Positions 2,715 through 10,062 of a DNA stretch of 64,000 bases are shown here, piece after piece. This DNA is from a virus (taxonomy: Duplodnaviria; Caudoviricetes), in the IMG/VR virus record IMGVR_UViG_3300024252_000005; one strand, given 5' to 3'. The first letter of the stretch is position 1; the number at the start of each line of letters is the position of its first letter. A program made the position numbers and the translations under genes. Below the pieces are notes generated by a model, which was given only the letters and a program-made list of their open reading frames with translations, did no database searches and was not told the DNA's origin.

Positions 2715-2902
2715 TTAATCCTCGCTTTAAAGAATTGTTTATTTATATTAATATTATATTAAAAAAAAAAAAATGTTGCACGCATAAATATAATAACATT
2801 TTTTCGATTTACAAATTTATACAAAAAGGTTTTTTAAGTCTAAAGTGTTTAATGTTTCATGATACTTATTACATATAATTTAAATAAAGAAAGCTTATTA
2901 TT

Positions 2903-3373
2903 TTGTCATATACATTTGATATAAGATCTAAAAAACAAACACACTTACAACCTTCAGAAGGAAACTTTTCCGGGCAAACGAGCAGCACTTCTTATACAGA
3001 TGTTTCTGGTACTGAACTTAGTTTTGAGTGTGATACCGTATCTGGATATTCAAAAGTTATATTTGAAATATCTGTACAAACTGGTTGGGGACCAGACGCA
3101 AATAACAATACAGGCGATATGAAGTTACTTGAAAGTTCTGATCAAACAAACTGGTCTGATATAGAAAATTCAAAAGTAAGAATTTCCATGTCAGCATCTT
3201 ATCATGACAGTACTTTTGAACATAAGTTTACATTAAACCCTTGGTCAGGAACTAAGTATTTTAAACTACAAATAAAATCATCTAGCAGCAGTACAGATTT
3301 TAATATCAACAAAAGAGGTAGTAGCACATATCCTTGGCTTACACCACCAACTATCAGTATTAGAGTAATATAA
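2903..3373 (+). CDS. small beta-rich virion-like protein, triplet member 1
   Basis: TTG start, S/T-rich, similar layout to the next two ORFs. Confidence 0.6.
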   Translation: MSYTFDIRSKKQTHLQPSEGNFSGQTSSTSYTDVSGTELSFECDTVSGYSKVIFEISVQTGWGPDANNNTGDMKLLESSDQTNWSDIENSKVRISMSASYHDSTFEHKFTLNPWSGTKYFKLQIKSSSSSTDFNINKRGSSTYPWLTPPTISIRVI

Positions 3374-3374
3374 T

Positions 3375-3830
3375 ATGTCTTATAATAAATATAAAAACTA
3401 TAATGCTGGAACTACGACTAATAGTTCAACTCAAACAACAACAACAGCGGGTATTGTAGTTAATGGTTTAACCTTTAGCTATATACCTGCAAAGAACTCT
3501 AGTGAAGTTATTTTTGAATACAGCTTTTATGCTGAAAAAAATAACGGTATACCTTTTATACATACTGAGATCGAATACTCAACAGACAACGGCTCATCTT
3601 TTACTAACATTGGAGAAAAATATAAAATGTATAGCTGCTCTGGGCCTTATAATAATTTCTATATACACTATAGAGTTTTATGTAAACTATCGTCATGGTC
3701 AGGTGAAAGAATAATTAGAGTTAAAGCTTTTGAGCATAACTATAGCAGCACAACTAATGTTGCAATACTTCACTATATTTCTGACTTGTCTGAATATATT
3801 AATACAAATTATATTATCTATAGCGAGTAA
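3375..3830 (+). CDS. small beta-rich virion-like protein, triplet member 2
   Basis: MSY start; VIFEYSFY and STDNGSSF echo members 1 and 3. Confidence 0.65.
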   Translation: MSYNKYKNYNAGTTTNSSTQTTTTAGIVVNGLTFSYIPAKNSSEVIFEYSFYAEKNNGIPFIHTEIEYSTDNGSSFTNIGEKYKMYSCSGPYNNFYIHYRVLCKLSSWSGERIIRVKAFEHNYSSTTNVAILHYISDLSEYINTNYIIYSE

Positions 3831-3834
3831 ATTA

Positions 3835-4287
3835 ATGTCATATGATTCAAGCCTTCCTATAAATTATCAAATTATTGAAACTGTAAATTCTTCTACACAA
3901 AGTGTATCAAACTCTTCTGTTGAATTAGAAGGTTCTAAAATAGATTATAATTTTTCAATGGGAAACTTTGTTGTATATAAATTTAGTTTTTATATGAATT
4001 GTGATGGAACTTATACATCATCTATATTTAAACTAGAAACTTCTACAGATGATTCCAGTTGGAATCATATTACGGGATGCTCGCTTTTAATTGGCGATGA
4101 TCGAGCAGCTGAAAACCAAAAAACAAATGTTAATATTTTTTTTGTTATTCCTGCTAGTAGTATTTCTAGATACTTAAGAATTGTAGGTTATTCAAAATCT
4201 GCTTCAACTAGTTTTACACTATTTCAAAGTTCATTTGAAGGAACAAACAGATACATAAATTCAATATTAGAAGTATTTACTATTTAA
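3835..4287 (+). CDS. small beta-rich virion-like protein, triplet member 3
   Basis: ATG at 3835 (MSYDSS) follows the previous stop; the track start 3730 overlaps the upstream gene. Confidence 0.65.
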   Translation: MSYDSSLPINYQIIETVNSSTQSVSNSSVELEGSKIDYNFSMGNFVVYKFSFYMNCDGTYTSSIFKLETSTDDSSWNHITGCSLLIGDDRAAENQKTNVNIFFVIPASSISRYLRIVGYSKSASTSFTLFQSSFEGTNRYINSILEVFTI

Positions 4288-4288
4288 A

Positions 4289-4444
4289 TACCATCAACAG
4301 AGATCAAACCGGTACAGCCATAAATACTCCGAGCGGGATTCGAACCCGCAAGCCATAAGGCGCCTGATTTTAAGTCAGGTTTGTCTACCAATTCCAACAT
4401 CAGAGTTAATAATTTACTGCGTCTGCCTATTCCGTCATGGTGGC
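4289..4444 (-). pseudogene. degenerate tRNA-Leu-type gene split around the intact tRNA-Leu
   Basis: 5' half GCCACCATGACGGAATAGGCAGACGC (4444-4407); 3' half TTATGGCTGTACCGGTTTGATCTCTGTTGATGGTA (4324-4289); acceptor strands GCCACCA/TGATGGT pair at 6 of 7. Confidence 0.65.
4325..4406 (-). tRNA. trnL: tRNA-Leu(UAA)
   Basis: Acceptor ACTCTGA/TCGGAGT, anticodon arm CCTGA-CTTAAAA-TCAGG, long variable arm, GGTTCGAATCC; CCA not encoded. Confidence 0.92.
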
Positions 4445-4600
4445 TTGATTAATGTCATGTTTATGCCAGTCAGGATTACAAATAGTACACCAATTATCAC
4501 ACTTCTTGCAACCGTATATCTCTTGTACGCCTTTGACACACTCATGCAAGAAAAAATCATAAGTTTTTTTGCACTTTTTACATTTTGATTTTTTGCTCAT
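4427..4600 (-). CDS. small Cys-rich (CKKC x2, CxxC) protein, 57 aa
   Basis: Translated by hand: MSKKSKCKKCKK...CKKCDNWCTICNPDW...QATMTE*; not in the ORF track. Confidence 0.55.
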   Translation of the reverse strand: MSKKSKCKKCKKTYDFFLHECVKGVQEIYGCKKCDNWCTICNPDWHKHDINQATMTE

Positions 4601-4618
4601 GAATAATATTAACCTTTA

Positions 4619-4691
4619 AGCTAATGATGGGACTCGAACCCAGAACCTCTTGTTTACAAATCAAGAGCTCTGCCAATTGAGCTACACCAGC
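4619..4691 (-). tRNA. trnT: tRNA-Thr(UGU)
   Basis: GCTGGTG/CATTAGC acceptor, loop TT-TGT-AA, GGTTCGAGTCC; one anticodon-stem mismatch. Confidence 0.9.
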
Positions 4692-4814
4692 ATGTTCTTG
4701 TTTAGATTATATATTTACATATTCATATTGTTAATTTTTTTTGTTCTTATGTAATTAATCTCCTTTTTTATTATTATAATATTAAATTAAACTATTTACA
4801 CATGAGGAAAATGC

Positions 4815-5351
4815 ATGAGAAATAAACCTAATCAAATATCTTGGGATGATGGTAATAGACTATACAGCTTAGAGACTAAAGATATAATACATGTACTTGT
4901 TAGTAATGATGTTCAAGTAAAAAATATCTCTCCAGCTGGTTCATTAAGAAGAAAAAGACATAAAGTTGGAGACTTAGACATTGTAATAGAGGTAGATAAT
5001 CCTAAATTGGCAGGTAAAATACTAGAAGACAAAATGAATTATAATTTTATTGCTAAAAGCTCTTTTTACAAAGGTAAAATTCTTAATACAGGCGTTGACT
5101 TATTTGTTGCAGGCCATCACGATTATTACGCTATGCTATTTTTCTTAACTGGTTGTGAAGATTGGAACTTAAGAATTATGAAATATTTAAAAAACAATAC
5201 TGATATTAGATACACACCATTTCAGTTTATTAATAGTAAAAACAAAAAAGTGTATAAGTTTAACTCAGAAAAAGAAATATTTAAACTAATTAATCATAAT
5301 TATGTATTACCAGTAAATAGAAAACCTAACTACGTAAAATTTGGAGATTAA
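4815..5351 (+). CDS. polX: minimal X-family DNA polymerase (PolX palm + C-terminal domain)
   Basis: AGSLRR..VGDLDIV, GVDLF, LFFLTGC..WN, SEKEIF..YVLPVNR; 178 aa. Confidence 0.85.
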   Translation: MRNKPNQISWDDGNRLYSLETKDIIHVLVSNDVQVKNISPAGSLRRKRHKVGDLDIVIEVDNPKLAGKILEDKMNYNFIAKSSFYKGKILNTGVDLFVAGHHDYYAMLFFLTGCEDWNLRIMKYLKNNTDIRYTPFQFINSKNKKVYKFNSEKEIFKLINHNYVLPVNRKPNYVKFGD

Positions 5352-7541
5352 ATGAAGTTATTAAGAGAACACTATAAAGAGCTGTTAAACGAAGAAATTG
5401 ATTATTCTTCAAAGTTGGCAACAGTATATCATCTTACAGGATTTAAAACTGAACAATATGATTCTGTTTACGCAAAACTTAAAAAGAAAACGCCTAAAGA
5501 CCTTGAAGGTGAGATTGATGCAAAATATAGCTCAAAGCCAAAGTCTAGAGCACAGAGTATTTTATCTAAAACTGAGTACAAAGCAGGACTTAAAAATTTA
5601 AAAAAATACAAAACATCAGCAGGACAAGCTTATCATATAGCAAGAAATATTAGCAATAATTTATTTGATGTAGGAAGTTATTTTCAAGCAGGCGGTGGTG
5701 CAGCATACGGATCAGGTCTTTACACTTGTTATAGATTAAATCCAAAAATAGCGCAGAATTACGGTAACGTTATTTTAAGGTTTGATGTAGACATATCAAA
5801 CTTTTTAATATTCAATGAAGGAATAGCAAGAAAAATACACGGTAATGATCATTATAAGTTAGACGACCAATTTATGCAAATTCTTAAAAGAAAAGGATTT
5901 AATCTTCGCGGACACTACGAATACTCTGATTCTGTAGAAATGTCGGACGACGCTGAAGAGAACTTAGGTGACTATATTGCTTTGCTCGATCAAATGTCTT
6001 CTTCTGATGCTTTTAAGAATAGTGATTTTAATACAGACGTAAGAACAGCAGATATGGCAAATCATGCTTTGTATGAATTTAGCAAGAAATTTAAAAACGG
6101 CAGTGCTTTAAAACTAAGAGATATCATTGATGGTGTTATATTTTATGGTTATAGTGACGGCCCTGTTTGTGTAATATATCACCCAGAATCTCTAGGAACT
6201 TATAAACTTACAGGTGCAGGTTATTTTAAGAATGGTCGGCCTGTAATAGAGTCAGACATAGAAGCTTTAGTAGGTAGAACAGGAAGAGATCTCGCAAATT
6301 CTTTTCAAACTTCACAAGAACTAGATCAAGATGCTCAAGAGCGAGCTGAAGAAAGAAATCAAAGATTTAAAGATGTTCTTACAAATTACGAAATAAACTC
6401 AAAAACTTCAGAAGAAGAGTTTATCAACAATATTCCTTCAGAACTTACTAGCATTATTGAACCCTTAAGACTGGTACTTGAAGATAATATTCCTGAAGAT
6501 ATTATGATAGAAAGGTTAAGCTCAACTACCAACTGGGATAAATTCTTACAAGGCATGGCAGATTCATATCATTACATTCAATGTATTGTTTCTATACTTG
6601 CTGAGCCAATGTTAAAATTTATTGAACATTTTGGCCCAGGTTTGGAAATAATTAGTGAGGACGAGTTTAAAGAATATTTTAAGTTATTTAAACAATATGC
6701 ACAAAATAAAACTTCTAATGCACCAAAGCTTGCAGATTTTGAGTCTAGAGGTTTGAAGTGTGTAGCACAAAACGAAGAGGAGTTTTCTAATCTTGTTGAT
6801 CAACATTTAGGAAGTCTTATTGAGAATTATAATACAATGTTAAGAGATCAGATAGGCGCATATTTTGTTGACTTCGTAGTTGCAGCCATGTTTGACGGTG
6901 AGACCAGTAGCATTAATAATTCTATTGGCAGATGTACTTTGGATACAATTGATATCAATACTGACAATGATAAAAAAGTTATCGAGAAGCACATGTCAGT
7001 TATTAACAACATACTTTCTAACGTACAAAGCAAGTTAATTGAATTTATTACAAAAACAATACCGGAAAATGTACAATCTGATGAAGGCAAAAATGCAGTT
7101 CGAATAGCATTCAGACATGTAGACGCTTTTGATGAAAATGGCAACATTTTTCTTGATGAGATTATTGAAAGATATGGCTGGTATTCTGATTGGTGTCACG
7201 CTGGTACTGAGTTATTTTATACTATACATGAAACTTTTAACGTAGGTTCTTTCGATGCTTTCACTAGTGAATTAAATTCTTACAAAATTGACAGAGAAAA
7301 ATTTGATCCTGAATTCATACTTCATGAAATGTATGAAGTTCCTAATAATAATTTATTAGGTGATGTATCTGGCTTAGTTCTAGTAATGTTTAAAAACGGC
7401 AAGGATGTCTATAAAAGAAACAACATAATGTCAACTGAATATCTATATAAACAAATTCTTGAATCAAAAGCAACTAATGTAGCATATGCTGTTCAAGAAC
7501 AATTTTATGTAGGCTCGCCTGGGGGAAGCATTGATATTTAA
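5352..7541 (+). CDS. large protein with N-terminal ADP-ribosyltransferase-like motifs; probable virion cargo
   Basis: VYH..G and G..YGSGLY motifs typical of H-Y type ART folds; leader-like MKLLREHYKELLNEE. Confidence 0.55.
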   Translation: MKLLREHYKELLNEEIDYSSKLATVYHLTGFKTEQYDSVYAKLKKKTPKDLEGEIDAKYSSKPKSRAQSILSKTEYKAGLKNLKKYKTSAGQAYHIARNISNNLFDVGSYFQAGGGAAYGSGLYTCYRLNPKIAQNYGNVILRFDVDISNFLIFNEGIARKIHGNDHYKLDDQFMQILKRKGFNLRGHYEYSDSVEMSDDAEENLGDYIALLDQMSSSDAFKNSDFNTDVRTADMANHALYEFSKKFKNGSALKLRDIIDGVIFYGYSDGPVCVIYHPESLGTYKLTGAGYFKNGRPVIESDIEALVGRTGRDLANSFQTSQELDQDAQERAEERNQRFKDVLTNYEINSKTSEEEFINNIPSELTSIIEPLRLVLEDNIPEDIMIERLSSTTNWDKFLQGMADSYHYIQCIVSILAEPMLKFIEHFGPGLEIISEDEFKEYFKLFKQYAQNKTSNAPKLADFESRGLKCVAQNEEEFSNLVDQHLGSLIENYNTMLRDQIGAYFVDFVVAAMFDGETSSINNSIGRCTLDTIDINTDNDKKVIEKHMSVINNILSNVQSKLIEFITKTIPENVQSDEGKNAVRIAFRHVDAFDENGNIFLDEIIERYGWYSDWCHAGTELFYTIHETFNVGSFDAFTSELNSYKIDREKFDPEFILHEMYEVPNNNLLGDVSGLVLVMFKNGKDVYKRNNIMSTEYLYKQILESKATNVAYAVQEQFYVGSPGGSIDI

Positions 7542-7759
7542 TCTTCAAATGCGATTTTGATATCATTATAAGGATCATTTGTATTTGCATAAAACAATGC
7601 TAGTTTACCTTTGTCGTTCAATAAACGAAAAACGCACTTACAATAGAAGCCATTCTCAACTTCTTTATGTATAACCAAATGAACATTGTTGTTTTTGCCT
7701 TTCTCATAGTTCATTCCTGTAATTTCTACTAAGTCACCAACTTTTATTTGGCCATACAT
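7538..7759 (-). CDS. small hypothetical (KOW/SH3-like) protein
   Basis: MYGQIKVGDLVEI start at 7759. Confidence 0.5.
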   Translation of the reverse strand: MYGQIKVGDLVEITGMNYEKGKNNNVHLVIHKEVENGFYCKCVFRLLNDKGKLALFYANTNDPYNDIKIAFED

Positions 7760-7849
7760 GAAATAAAAACTCGATATACTTTTGAAATTAAATTTATGTG
7801 AATCATAGAATGATAATAGCAAAAAGTATTCTAAGAAGGAAATTTATTA

Positions 7850-7999
7850 ATGAAAAATAATAATGTATTGCAAAGATATATTGAAAATATTCTATTAGAA
7901 ATAGCATCAATTGGAAAACAATCTAACTTTAAGCTAGAAGAAGAAATAGAAAGTCTTGAAAGAAGACTAATTCATATGCAAACGCATGAGAATTATTAG
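7850..7999 (+). CDS. 49-aa peptide with leader-like LQRYIENILLE
   Basis: AAGGA SD, hand-translated ORF. Confidence 0.45.
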   Translation: MKNNNVLQRYIENILLEIASIGKQSNFKLEEEIESLERRLIHMQTHENY

Positions 8000-8003
8000 T
8001 TAA

Positions 8004-8024
8004 CACACTAGACAGGACTTGAAC
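8004..8024 (-). other. orphan tRNA T-loop/acceptor fragment
   Basis: GTTCAAGTCCTGTCTAGTGTG directly after the split-tRNA 3' half. Confidence 0.45.
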
Positions 8025-8063
8025 ACGCCTATCTGGACTCGAACCAGAACTCTTGGGCTTAAG
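8024..8063 (-). pseudogene. 3' half of split tRNA (partner at 9058-9091)
   Basis: CTTAA-GCCCA-AGAGT-TCTGG-TTCGAGT-CCAGA-TAGGCGT-G; TAGGCGT pairs 7/7 with GCGCTTA at 9091. Confidence 0.75.
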
Positions 8064-8150
8064 CACCTCCTGGAGGATTCGAACCTCGCACTCTCCAATT
8101 CCCCTATATTAATGAGACCGGCTTAGAAGGCCAGTGGGGATGCAGAAGGC
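8064..8150 (-). tRNA. atypical tRNA-Arg(UCU)-like element with rearranged D-arm
   Basis: Acceptor GCCTTCT/AGGAGGT, arm CTGGC-CTTCTAA-GCCGG, GGTTCGAATCC; no canonical D-arm; 23-nt insert after the anticodon arm. Confidence 0.55.
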
Positions 8151-8226
8151 ATATAACAATATTATTATTTTTTTGTTTATTGTTAAATTATTTTTGCATT
8201 AACATTGATCTAAGCATATTTATTAT

Positions 8227-9057
8227 ATGTTCAAGTTGAGGATAAATATGTATTGCAATAAATGTGAAAAAGAGATACCCAAAAAAGAAGCTGGTAATCA
8301 TAAAAGATGGTGTGGAAATAAAAAAACTATTAAAGATTCTTACTGTAAGATATGTAATTCTCCAATAAAAAACACAAGAACAAACTCAGTTAGAAAATAC
8401 TGTGCTAGAGAATGTTTTAACAAAGGAGTATATACTAAAGAGTTTAAACAAAAAATATCTAATAGCAGAAAAAAATATCTTAAGGAAAACCCTAACAGTC
8501 ATCCTTGGTGTAAAGAAAACAAATTTAAGTCTGCGCTAAAGAAGTTTCTTAAGGAAAATAATATAGACTTCATTGAAGAGCACCAGCCTCTGAAAGATAG
8601 ATTTTTCTCTATTGATATTGCCATACCAGAAGTTATGTTTGGAATAGAAGTAAATGGTGAGCAACATTATAATAGGGATAAAACTCTTAAGAAATATTAT
8701 CAAGAAAGACATAATTTAATTAAAGCACAAGGTTGGGTGATATATGAGATTCACTACTCTAAAGTTTATGACGATATTTTTTTATCGAGTTTAATTGAAA
8801 GAATAAGAAAAAATAATTTTAATAACTTTACAATAGACTTTGAGTTACGTAAAAACAAAGTTAAAAGAAGAAAAAATGTAAAGGAAGTCTCTCTAAAGCA
8901 TAAAGAAGAAAAAGCTAAAAAGTTGCTTGAAACAAGATTAGAACATATTAGTAAGGCTGAAAAGAATTGGGGTTGGATTTCCAAAGCTTCTCGAGATCTA
9001 GATATAAGTCATACTCATGTAAGAAGGCTCGTAAACAAGTATCTTTCTGATGCGTAA
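8227..9057 (+). CDS. free-standing homing-type endonuclease, Vsr/DUF559 (EDxHD-like) with Zn-finger, NUMOD3-like and HTH modules
   Basis: CNKC/CKIC/YCAREC, KQKISNSRKKYLKENP, IDIAIP..GIEVNGEQHY..RHNLIKAQGW.I; likely start ATG 8248. Confidence 0.75.
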   Translation: MFKLRINMYCNKCEKEIPKKEAGNHKRWCGNKKTIKDSYCKICNSPIKNTRTNSVRKYCARECFNKGVYTKEFKQKISNSRKKYLKENPNSHPWCKENKFKSALKKFLKENNIDFIEEHQPLKDRFFSIDIAIPEVMFGIEVNGEQHYNRDKTLKKYYQERHNLIKAQGWVIYEIHYSKVYDDIFLSSLIERIRKNNFNNFTIDFELRKNKVKRRKNVKEVSLKHKEEKAKKLLETRLEHISKAEKNWGWISKASRDLDISHTHVRRLVNKYLSDA

Positions 9058-9091
9058 AGGCCCCTGCTTTATCCTATTAAGCTATAAGCGC
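9058..9091 (-). pseudogene. 5' half of split tRNA (ends at U33)
   Basis: GCGCTTA-TA-GCTT-AATAGGATA-AAGC-A-GGGGC-CT; abuts the endonuclease stop codon. Confidence 0.75.
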
Positions 9092-9095
9092 TGAA

Positions 9096-9141
9096 TAGAT
9101 CTTTAATCAGAATTACTATTATTCTTTATATTAAAGATCTA
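9096..9141. repeat. 12-bp inverted repeat spacer between tRNA elements
   Basis: TAGATCTTTAAT ... ATTAAAGATCTA. Confidence 0.7.
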
Positions 9142-9143
9142 AA

Positions 9144-9216
9144 TGGGCACCCTGGGATTTGAACCCAGAATCGACGCTTTATGAGAGCGCTGCCTTAACC
9201 CTTTGGCCAGATGCCC
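9144..9216 (-). tRNA. tRNA with CAU anticodon (Ile2 or elongator Met)
   Basis: GGGCATC/GGTGCCC acceptor, GCGCT-CTCATAA-AGCGT, GGTTCAAATCC; lacks initiator hallmarks. Confidence 0.9.
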
Positions 9217-9256
9217 ATATAAGACCTTTTTGCTCTAACTACTGGGCTATAGGCCC
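9217..9256 (-). pseudogene. orphan tRNA 5' half (Ile2/Met-like) fused to the CAU tRNA
   Basis: GGGCCTATAGCCCAGTAGTTAGAGCAAAAAGGTCTTATAT immediately before +1 of the intact tRNA. Confidence 0.6.
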
Positions 9257-9317
9257 GTTAAAGGTGCTAAAAGCACCTAGATAATTATATAATCAAACTT
9301 TTAAAAGTTTAACAATA

Positions 9318-9704
9318 TTAACGTGGAGATACAACAAAAGTTTGATTATTAACTTGGTATGTATTAGTAATTCCTGAAGAATTGTAATTTTGTGCAACTT
9401 GCTGAATCCTTCTCAATTGATCATTAATTCTATGAAGCTTGATAAAACTCCCATTATTAGGCTTTCGATAATTAACACATGTATACTTAGATCGATTACG
9501 TGTTGTAGTTGTAGTTGTGCTGTTGTTTGACGCTGTTACAATCTTTTCATTAGTCTTAATAATTCTATTAATAGTTCCATTCCTGTTTGCTGAGTAATAA
9601 ACGCCTGGGTTCTGTGTATCCATAAACATCATTGTACCGTTGCTAATCTGGCGAACTGTTGAAGTCTCAATAAAACGATTTGTGTCAAAATTTGTGTTTC
9701 CCAT
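9318..9704 (-). CDS. early protein, paralog family A
   Basis: FIETSTVRQ..GTMMF..YYSA..GTINR resembles 15307 and 28829. Confidence 0.6.
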   Translation of the reverse strand: MGNTNFDTNRFIETSTVRQISNGTMMFMDTQNPGVYYSANRNGTINRIIKTNEKIVTASNNSTTTTTTRNRSKYTCVNYRKPNNGSFIKLHRINDQLRRIQQVAQNYNSSGITNTYQVNNQTFVVSPR

Positions 9705-9759
9705 AAAATGTACCTTTCTTATGGTGTTGAAATATTTGGGTTACTTAGCACTTACTATA

Positions 9760-10062
9760 TTATAGTAAATCTAAGTCAGAAGAACGAATAAATATGAATT
9801 CGCTCTCATCGGAATCATCTACGACAATAGTGATTCCACCTATTGAAAACAATAAGCACTTAAAACTTTTTTTACTTTTAGCAAAATAAATAGTTCCTAT
9901 CTTATTAGCAATATTCATTATCTTGCTATAAGATTCAATATTCTCTTTGCTATTTTCAATACAAACAATATCTTCTATATTTGATCTCAAGATAGAAGAT
10001 ATTTCTTTTGTCAACATATGCTTTTTATTCTGGATATTGTTTTTGTTTTTGCTAATATTCAT
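9760..10062 (-). CDS. hypothetical early protein
   Basis: ORF downstream of the promoter copy at ~10131. Confidence 0.6.
   Translation of the reverse strand: MNISKNKNNIQNKKHMLTKEISSILRSNIEDIVCIENSKENIESYSKIMNIANKIGTIYFAKSKKSFKCLLFSIGGITIVVDDSDESEFIFIRSSDLDLL

Follow-up and report, generated by a model that had tools for sequence, protein, structure and literature searches.

Group I introns in the anticodon loops of tRNA genes are a known arrangement. I-Ssp6803I, found in tRNA-fMet, is the endonuclease example of such an intron in the anticodon loop of a bacterial tRNA (cited in PMC2677866). In the tRNA array of T-even phages, SegB, a free-standing GIY-YIG homing endonuclease whose gene is widely found close to tRNAs, makes its cuts inside tRNA genes (PMC13096335), and homing endonucleases resembling Vsr (very-short-patch-repair) endonucleases were first described from the “fractured genes” of marine phages (PMC2677866). 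In a review, transfer RNAs which lack the D arm are listed from mitochondria only, with phages unmentioned (PMC7609411, PMC5389517). Here, we describe the tRNA cluster of a 64,000-nt stretch of DNA from a virus of the Caudoviricetes (IMG/VR record IMGVR_UViG_3300024252_000005; the whole stretch is called the window, or W, below), in which the resident tRNA-Arg(UCU) gene is interrupted at its anticodon by a mobile cassette that combines an endonuclease gene with an Arg(UCU)-type RNA. An earlier note, made from the letters of the window, had pointed to half tRNAs lying next to intact tRNAs of the same isotype at three loci and had suggested a systematic turnover of tRNA genes. In our view, the cluster probably belongs to an AT-rich marine phage whose tRNA genes repeatedly break and get replaced at the anticodon region, with the Arg gene affected by way of the mobile endonuclease cassette and the CAU and Leu genes bearing older scars. 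The G+C content of the window is 33%, the runs containing it are seawater metagenomes, and the nearest relatives of the local genes are found in marine metagenome and viral contigs, one of the latter being 211 kb long. Among cultured phages no close relative of the window was found, nor any close DNA-level relative of the cluster or the cassette RNA. Relative loci are numbered L001–L121, and X4, X5, X6, and X23 denote sequencing runs.

The insertion is documented by alleles in which the site is empty. When contigs of four seawater runs were aligned to positions 7400–9900, one joint was obtained, namely a 143-nt DNA contig of run X4 which follows the window from 9096 to 9057, continues with one letter and then runs from 8061 to 8025, skipping 995 nt. 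On the tRNA strand, this contig has the anticodon loop CUUCUAA with the anticodon UCU. Upstream, it includes the 3′-terminal part of a tRNA-Lys(UUU), which relatives also have there, and downstream a further tRNA begins. Over the endonuclease gene, other contigs of run X4 agree with the window at every base, so that filled and empty alleles coexist in one sample. Furthermore, a search with a pattern across the joint revealed two viral contigs, L118 and L119, in which the gene is uninterrupted and is called Arg(tct) by ARAGORN; compared with the halves in the window, it differs at one base of the D loop and has no equivalent of the T at 8062. L118 has tRNA-Lys(UUU), 4 bases and tRNA-Arg(UCU) in succession, which is the order of the filled loci L001, L006, L040, and L042. 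Because the empty-site alleles define the joint, the insert of 993 nt is placed between U34 (9057) and C35 (8063), i.e., within the anticodon loop, where group I introns of tRNA genes are also inserted.

In the window itself, ARAGORN with introns allowed reports one extra gene in the entire 64 kb, a split tRNA at 9091–8024 with a 994-nt interruption and the label Lys(CUU). Its two halves are also recovered by half-tRNA profiles (5′ half, E=0.007; 3′ half, E=0.003), which were built from 27 phage tRNAs of related loci, run over the whole window on both strands, and used because the whole-tRNA covariance model R1, in local mode, is a poor detector of half tRNAs. Across 0.55 Mb, 82 half-tRNA matches at E<=0.5 lie outside called tRNAs as opposed to ~1 expected, many of them being duplicates or intron exons. 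The split tRNA (“Arg/Lys” in the earlier note) is a split gene indeed, but the Lys(CUU) identity is rejected, since the empty-site alleles in X4, L118, and L119 read Arg(UCU). The flush ends described in the same place are found at 9217/9216 and 8064/8063, but not at the left end of the Arg insert, which is the stop codon of the endonuclease gene rather than a tRNA end.

The filled build, which comprises an Arg 5′ half ending in CTT, the antisense endonuclease gene, an 87-nt RNA and a 3′ half with an acceptor strand complementary to that of the 5′ half, is present in L001, L003, L006, L007, L040, L042, and L043, and covers at least eight distinct metagenomic loci. With these filled loci on one side and the empty X4 contig and the uninterrupted genes of L118 and L119 on the other, a single site is polymorphic for presence and absence of the cassette. 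The endonucleases of the filled relatives are 78–86% identical to that of the window, apart from L007 (55%). Between W and L001, the cassette is 85% identical and the flanking genes ~69%, and in W, L001, L006, and L043, identical 3′ halves travel with the cassette while the 5′ halves differ. Some of the loci carry damaged pieces: in L001 the 3′ half does not fit the 5′ half and the acceptor strands are mismatched, in L003 the 5′ piece is truncated and stops in the D loop, and L045 has the same build without the 87-nt RNA and with a shortened 3′ piece which is missing positions 35 to ~46. A further variant, in L065 and L080, consists of the 5′ half, an endonuclease gene on the tRNA strand, a canonical tRNA-Arg(UCU) and the 3′ half. 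The isotype concordance across relatives on which the earlier note depended is borne out, with Arg lying within Arg in every filled locus read and the CAU relic discussed below matching the CAU allele of a relative.

A self-splicing intron in the window is rejected. No Intron_gpI match was found in the window at the Rfam gathering score, nor up to E=10 over 3500–10000, and the insert has only 163 nt outside the open reading frame (ORF), too little non-coding sequence for such an element. Since the insert is without a ribozyme, the broken Arg gene could not be restored by self-splicing. It is conceivable that the split gene nevertheless functions, with RNase P and a 3′ end nuclease freeing the embedded, intron-like RNA and an RNA ligase joining the two halves held together by their acceptor stem. 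This would fit the acceptor strands of the halves, which pair 7/7 in W, L003, L007, L045, and L065, the compensatory changes in the D stem and in pair 1–72 between L040 and W/L042, and the end of the embedded RNA, which falls exactly at the 3′ half. However, the ~900 nt which follow the 5′ half are antisense endonuclease sequence and offer no defined processing site, the anticodon stems of the halves are unpaired in L001, L006, L007, L040, and L065, and the anticodon loop of the window carries an extra T compared with the uninterrupted gene. The lack of a ribozyme and the damaged pieces of L001, L003, and L045 also argue against function, and homing of the cassette into different intact alleles would in any case leave matched acceptor strands. 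A functional split gene is thus very improbable. Contigs of the RNA run X23 cover only 7400–7603 and 8617–8767 and are uninformative on expression or joining.

Homologues of the endonuclease adjoin group I introns which occupy exactly the same site, U34|C35 of tRNA-Arg(UCU), in L015 (2013–2308), L016 (3446–3713), L025 (1928–2207), and L050 (82–351). Rfam Intron_gpI matches were obtained for L050, where they confirm the intron, and for L051; in the latter, a similar intron lies inside tRNA-Lys(UUU) (2812–3088). In L052 (1502–1620), a tRNA-Arg(UCU) beside an endonuclease homologue has a hairpin-forming insert of 47 nt in the anticodon loop, which is far below the size of a group I ribozyme. Across the 79 non-redundant loci of the endonuclease family, a called tRNA lies within 300 nt in 51, and Arg(tct) is by far the commonest of the tRNAs within 150 nt of the endonuclease gene (24/56). 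A shorter homologue is encoded by cultured T4-like phages of Klebsiella, Escherichia, Acinetobacter, and Enterobacter, and it abuts or overlaps the start of tRNA-Arg(tct) in Klebsiella phage vB_KpnM_17-11 (L120:1501–2207) and Escherichia phage vB_EcoM_WFL6982 (L121:1492–2218), being annotated as hypothetical in one of the two and unannotated in the other. Just upstream of their start, the T4-like homologues have, in antisense, a 13-nt copy of a D-arm motif of the Arg type.

The product of the endonuclease gene has 103 homologues, some of which were named very-short-patch-repair (Vsr) endonuclease in their source, and the names DUF559 and Vsr are present among them. Pfam gave weak REase_MTES_1575/RAP matches and no GIY-YIG match. 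In the alignment, an N-terminal Cys/His module precedes a central domain, where D, E, N, Q, and H residues are invariant, and the C-terminal end is helix-turn-helix-like; D130, E141, N143, Q146, and H147 are invariant in 23 homologues. A search of PDB sequences with the endonuclease profile gave nothing meaningful, the similarity to the I-Bth0305I catalytic domain (3r3p) being too low for a sequence search. The AlphaFold model (pLDDT 81.7), on the other hand, matches 3r3p with a TM score of 0.75 by target, a probability of 1.00 and E 3.5e-3, and it also matches Vsr (1vsr). As judged from this model, the catalytic fold is of the Vsr/restriction-endonuclease-like type. The AT-rich region upstream of the gene is conserved among relatives and presumably serves as promoter and leader.

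The second part of the cassette is the 87-nt RNA, of which the window has one copy. It is assigned to the tRNA strand because of its G-U pairs, and there is no gap between its discriminator base and the 3′ half of the broken Arg gene. RNAalifold on six distinct copies gives an acceptor stem of 8 bp, a 5-bp helix enclosing a 5-bp stem with the loop CUUCUAA, a single-stranded D-loop-like GGA motif after this long arm, and a T stem of 4 bp capped by a standard T loop. In the consensus fold, an acceptor stem is thus combined with a T arm whose loop is of the GGTTCGA type and with an anticodon loop of 7 nt in which U33 and a purine at position 37 are present, but the D arm of the cloverleaf is lacking, and the fold is not that of a canonical tRNA. 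With covariance model R2, at least 20 distinct members were found in other contigs, where they adjoin endonuclease homologues. None is called by ARAGORN, and a distant member in L020 reaches the Rfam tRNA threshold (38.5 bits). Most of the 20 aligned members have the loop CUUCUAA. In this alignment, which is fitted to its own model and so somewhat favours the pairing score, 95% of cells are paired, whereas shuffles reach 68% and slid partners no more than 55%. Two-sided changes are found in 20/22 pairs, among them the five of the enclosing helix. The comparison of members thus provides strong covariation for the family. L118, where there is no endonuclease match, has no 87-nt RNA. In L020 (2292–2456) and L106 (3386–3564), a tandem pair of D-arm-less Arg(UCU)-like RNA copies adjoins a single endonuclease gene.

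It is proposed that, during co-infection, the endonuclease would cleave the uninterrupted Arg(UCU) genes of relatives at the anticodon region and that repair of the break would copy the cassette into the cut gene. A carrier of the cassette would be immune to cutting because the insertion splits the target, and the passenger RNA, or a tRNA with the same anticodon, would substitute for the destroyed tRNA-Arg; AGA makes up 68% of the Arg codons in the phage of the window. The two Arg halves would be dead remnants which travel as homology arms and subsequently decay. Such a history would explain the matching far acceptor strands, which would be inherited from the invaded allele, together with the non-pairing stems beside the junction, and likewise the misfit 3′ half of L001 and the truncated pieces of L003 and L045. 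The junction of a CAU relic with a different CAU tRNA, and the nested Leu gene, both described below, would be older break-and-replace scars from which the endonuclease has gone. A more far-reaching version, in which the 87-nt RNA would be a working tRNA-Arg(UCU) with the D-loop function moved behind the anticodon arm, the cassette a self-compensating gene drive with a cut-resistant replacement, and the CAU and Leu(UAA) scars products of the same process, is put forward tentatively, as it seems to us possible but short of probable.

At the CAU locus, just three matches of the 5′-half profile in the whole window, both strands included, are better than E=29, namely the 5′ half of the split tRNA, tRNA-Thr and, in third place, 9256–9231 (E=0.14; the next match has E=29). 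This last match is missing at E<=10 from the output of the whole-tRNA covariance model in local mode, and its identification consequently rests on the half profile together with a homologue: the first 25 nt agree at 23/25 positions with the 5′ end of the intact CAU tRNA of L040 and L041, including the same acceptor strand (E=7e-4 in ~0.55 Mb), and the endonucleases of these two loci are 86% identical to that of the window. Beyond position 25, the piece has decayed. On these comparisons, 9256–9217 is a true relic of a CAU tRNA, and the Ile2/Met-like 5′ half proposed earlier is confirmed; a Lys-like identity, which had come from a small comparison set, is rejected by the comparison with the CAU tRNA of L040. 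The direct fusion to +1 of the CAU tRNA holds as well, the base right after the relic being G1 of the intact gene (Rfam 9216–9144; ARAGORN 9217–9143). This intact tRNA is 86–89% identical to parts of the CAU tRNAs of L119, L001, and L042. There are three different CAU alleles in L040 (3985–4057), L042 (2255–2331), and the window (9143–9217), of which those of L040 and L042 are in the same position in front of tRNA-Thr. Differing alleles among such close relatives suggest allele replacement rather than point divergence.

At the Leu locus, the intact tRNA-Leu(UAA) is flanked by two outer pieces in the right order and on the right strand, and their outer acceptor strands pair 6/7. In comparison with the inner Leu gene, 4.5% of random window pieces score as high as the piece at 4447–4407 and 0.28% as high as the one at 4324–4289. 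An intact counterpart of the outer pieces was not present in the fetched loci. A Leu gene nested in older Leu-like pieces is considered probable. A small Cys-rich ORF of 57 aa on the minus strand (4427–4600), for which no family match was found, lies between tRNA-Thr and the Leu pieces, with its end overlapping the outer Leu 5′ piece; as an endonuclease remnant it was rejected, with an hhalign probability of 2.5%.

The T-arm fragment at 8024–8004, which the earlier note had listed as a further fragment, is a weak profile match when taken alone (E 1.3–1.6, the fifth best T-arm-like site in the window). Its first 15 nt agree at 15/15 positions with the T arm of the tRNA-Thr of L007, and a T-arm/acceptor relic is found in the same place after the same tRNA in L001, L040, L043, L118, and one contig of run X5. 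In L118 it adjoins the uninterrupted Arg gene, and it is therefore older than the insertion. The fragment is a relic of a neighbouring tRNA, separate from the cassette event. Also in L118, beside the uninterrupted Arg gene, the 5′ piece of a Pro-like tRNA is fused within the D loop to the T-arm/acceptor piece of another tRNA (1645–1700); the undeleted 5′ part of this Pro-like piece is seemingly present in run X4. The chimera adds a further layer to the tRNA relics.

These older pieces can also be viewed as the ordinary decay of a dense tRNA array, in which partial deletions of tandem duplicates or neighbours would have produced the CAU and Leu relics and the T-arm piece, and spacers of 0–5 nt the flush ends, with no endonuclease involved at CAU and Leu. 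Spacers of 3–5 nt between tRNAs and pieces do occur in L001, L006, L007, and L118, the Pro-like chimera of L118 is of the deletion type, the outer Leu pieces are weak, and a relic preceding the CAU tRNA was seen in the window alone, being absent from L001, L042, L118, L119, and every other relative read. Decay, however, does not readily account for the nested Leu order (outer 5′ piece, whole inner gene, outer 3′ piece, with acceptors pairing), which requires an insertion or two exact deletions. In addition, relic and replacement have the same anticodon in both the CAU and the Leu case, three CAU alleles at one locus among close relatives point to replacement rather than decay, and the neighbouring Arg gene attests to an active replacement process in the same cluster. 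Ordinary decay is accordingly considered unlikely, albeit by no means negligible. A further explanation starts from the fact that tRNA anticodon loops are classical integration sites, and would have the pieces left behind by integrase-driven, site-specific integration into tRNA genes, as for islands and prophages. However, a scan of ORFs around the cluster gave no integrase-like domain, and the insert encodes a homing-type nuclease. Moreover, integration leaves an intact tRNA followed by a distant 3′ duplicate, whereas the polarity here is the opposite, with a 5′ half followed by an intact tRNA or with a gene-breaking insert. To this explanation we give almost no credence.

Several observations weigh against a break-and-replace process driven by the endonuclease. 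Neither an endonuclease gene nor a remnant of one is found at the CAU site or at the Leu site, the outer Leu pieces are only modestly Leu-like, and the junctions fall at different places (34/35 in Arg, ~38–40 in CAU and Leu). At the Arg locus, the compensatory changes mentioned above could reflect selection on the halves, the uninterrupted Arg gene of L119 has an ORF of related appearance next to it, and a 13-nt core around the anticodon loop is common to the 87-nt RNA and the target, which leaves the escape of the RNA from cutting unexplained. The endonuclease of L045 sits in the split gene without the RNA, and the passenger is therefore not obligatory. Lastly, the family alignment reveals an in-frame deletion of four residues in the window endonuclease, within a conserved motif upstream of the domain. 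Since these conserved residues are present in another allele, supplied by 12 extra bases at 8534 in a contig of run X6, the window copy may be a decaying and perhaps inactive allele. The break-and-replace reading nevertheless remains the one we favour. As to the like-for-like replacement at the anticodon region which had been claimed for three loci, it is upheld for Arg by the empty and filled alleles, supported for CAU by the relic, and probable at Leu. The systematic turnover mechanism, in turn, is established for Arg, and we infer its extension to CAU and Leu.

The features of the cluster are collected in Table 1. Standard tools (ARAGORN, Rfam) place three tRNAs on the minus strand of the window, namely Leu(UAA) at 4325–4406, Thr(UGU) at 4619–4691 and the CAU tRNA at 9143–9217, and low-threshold ARAGORN matches at 3232–3503 were rejected as not tRNA-like and inside coding sequence. 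The 12-bp inverted repeat in the spacer (at 9096–9139) could be a terminator or a deletion scar. An ORF adjoining the tRNA cluster (4815–5351, plus strand) shows weak similarity to nucleotidyltransferases of the DNA polymerase beta type (palm and thumb domains), and a search of viral contigs found no relatives of a neighbouring protein of 729 aa.

Table 1. Features of the tRNA cluster, with positions counted from the first letter of the window.
Feature	Positions	Strand	Basis or remark
Leu locus: intact tRNA-Leu(UAA) (4406–4325) flanked by Leu-like outer pieces (4447–4407, 4324–4289)	4289–4447	-	ARAGORN/Rfam; similarity test
Relic of the T arm and 3′ acceptor strand of a neighbouring tRNA	8004–8023	-	Weak profile match; positional homologues
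tRNA-Arg(UCU) 3′ half, C35 to discriminator	8024–8063	-	Extra T (8062) compared with the empty allele; from U36 identical to L118/L119
D-arm-less tRNA-Arg(UCU)-like RNA, 87 nt	8064–8150	-	RNAalifold, covariance model R2; missed by ARAGORN and Rfam
AT-rich stretch ahead of the endonuclease gene, presumably its promoter and leader	8151–8226	+	By-eye alignment of W, L001, L003, L006, L007, and L040
Vsr-like (I-Bth0305I-type) homing endonuclease gene, 276 aa	8227–9057	+	Antisense to the tRNAs; stop codon overlaps U34
tRNA-Arg(UCU) 5′ half, positions 1–34, ending in U34	9057–9091	-	Last base overlaps the endonuclease stop codon; one difference from L118/L119
Spacer with 12-bp inverted repeat	9092–9142	-	In relatives, tRNA-Thr, two small ORFs and tRNA-Lys(UUU) lie here; comparison with L040/L001
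Intact tRNA with anticodon CAU, of another allele type than the relic	9143–9216	-	ARAGORN; Rfam tRNA, 62.4 bits
Relic 5′ part (positions 1 to ~40) of an Ile2/Met-type CAU tRNA, anticodon stem-loop decayed	9217–9256	-	Half profile and L040/L041 homologue

Selfish endonucleases aimed at anticodon loops would offer a concrete mechanism for the turnover of phage tRNA repertoires. At one and the same site, three routes of survival can be distinguished, namely a group I intron, an endonuclease gene with a surrogate tRNA, and a linked tRNA allele which is presumed to be resistant. Because standard tRNA finders miss D-arm-less RNAs, the tRNA content of phages and their decoding of AGA are probably under-counted, and since homologues lie beside tRNA-Arg(UCU) in cultured T4-like coliphages, these ideas can be tested at the bench. 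In the literature searched, we found neither a tRNA gene fractured by a Vsr-like endonuclease gene together with a same-anticodon replacement nor a D-arm-less tRNA-like family in phages.

Compared with known systems, the locus resembles that of SegB in that an endonuclease gene lies inside a phage tRNA cluster and is co-located with tRNAs, SegB being known to drive the preferential inheritance or rearrangement of its tRNA region (PMC13096335). The two differ in fold (GIY-YIG in SegB, Vsr-like here) and in position, as SegB lies between genes and the present endonuclease inside a tRNA gene. Furthermore, SegB has no isotype preference, whereas the family described here is tied to Arg(UCU) and accompanied by a replacement RNA with the same anticodon. 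Group I introns of tRNA genes share the insertion in the anticodon loop, and the Arg(UCU) genes beside endonuclease relatives in fact have introns at U34|C35; the insert of the window differs by being without a ribozyme. The 87-nt RNA is reminiscent of D-arm-lacking mitochondrial tRNAs and of 8/4 allo-tRNAs, with which it has in common an acceptor, a T arm and an anticodon-type loop without a D arm, and stems of 8+4 bp (PMC7609411, PMC5389517). In contrast to these, its helix closes around the anticodon arm and is followed by the D-loop-like GGA motif, and its role in translation is a prediction. I-Bth0305I and the fractured genes share the catalytic fold (3r3p), the origin in marine phage metagenomes and a host gene split in two, and members of that family also adjoin or sit within group I introns (PMC2677866). 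In those systems, however, the fractured genes encode proteins and are rescued by split inteins (PMC2677866), while here the fractured gene is that of a tRNA, and rescue, if any, would come from the passenger tRNA-like gene.

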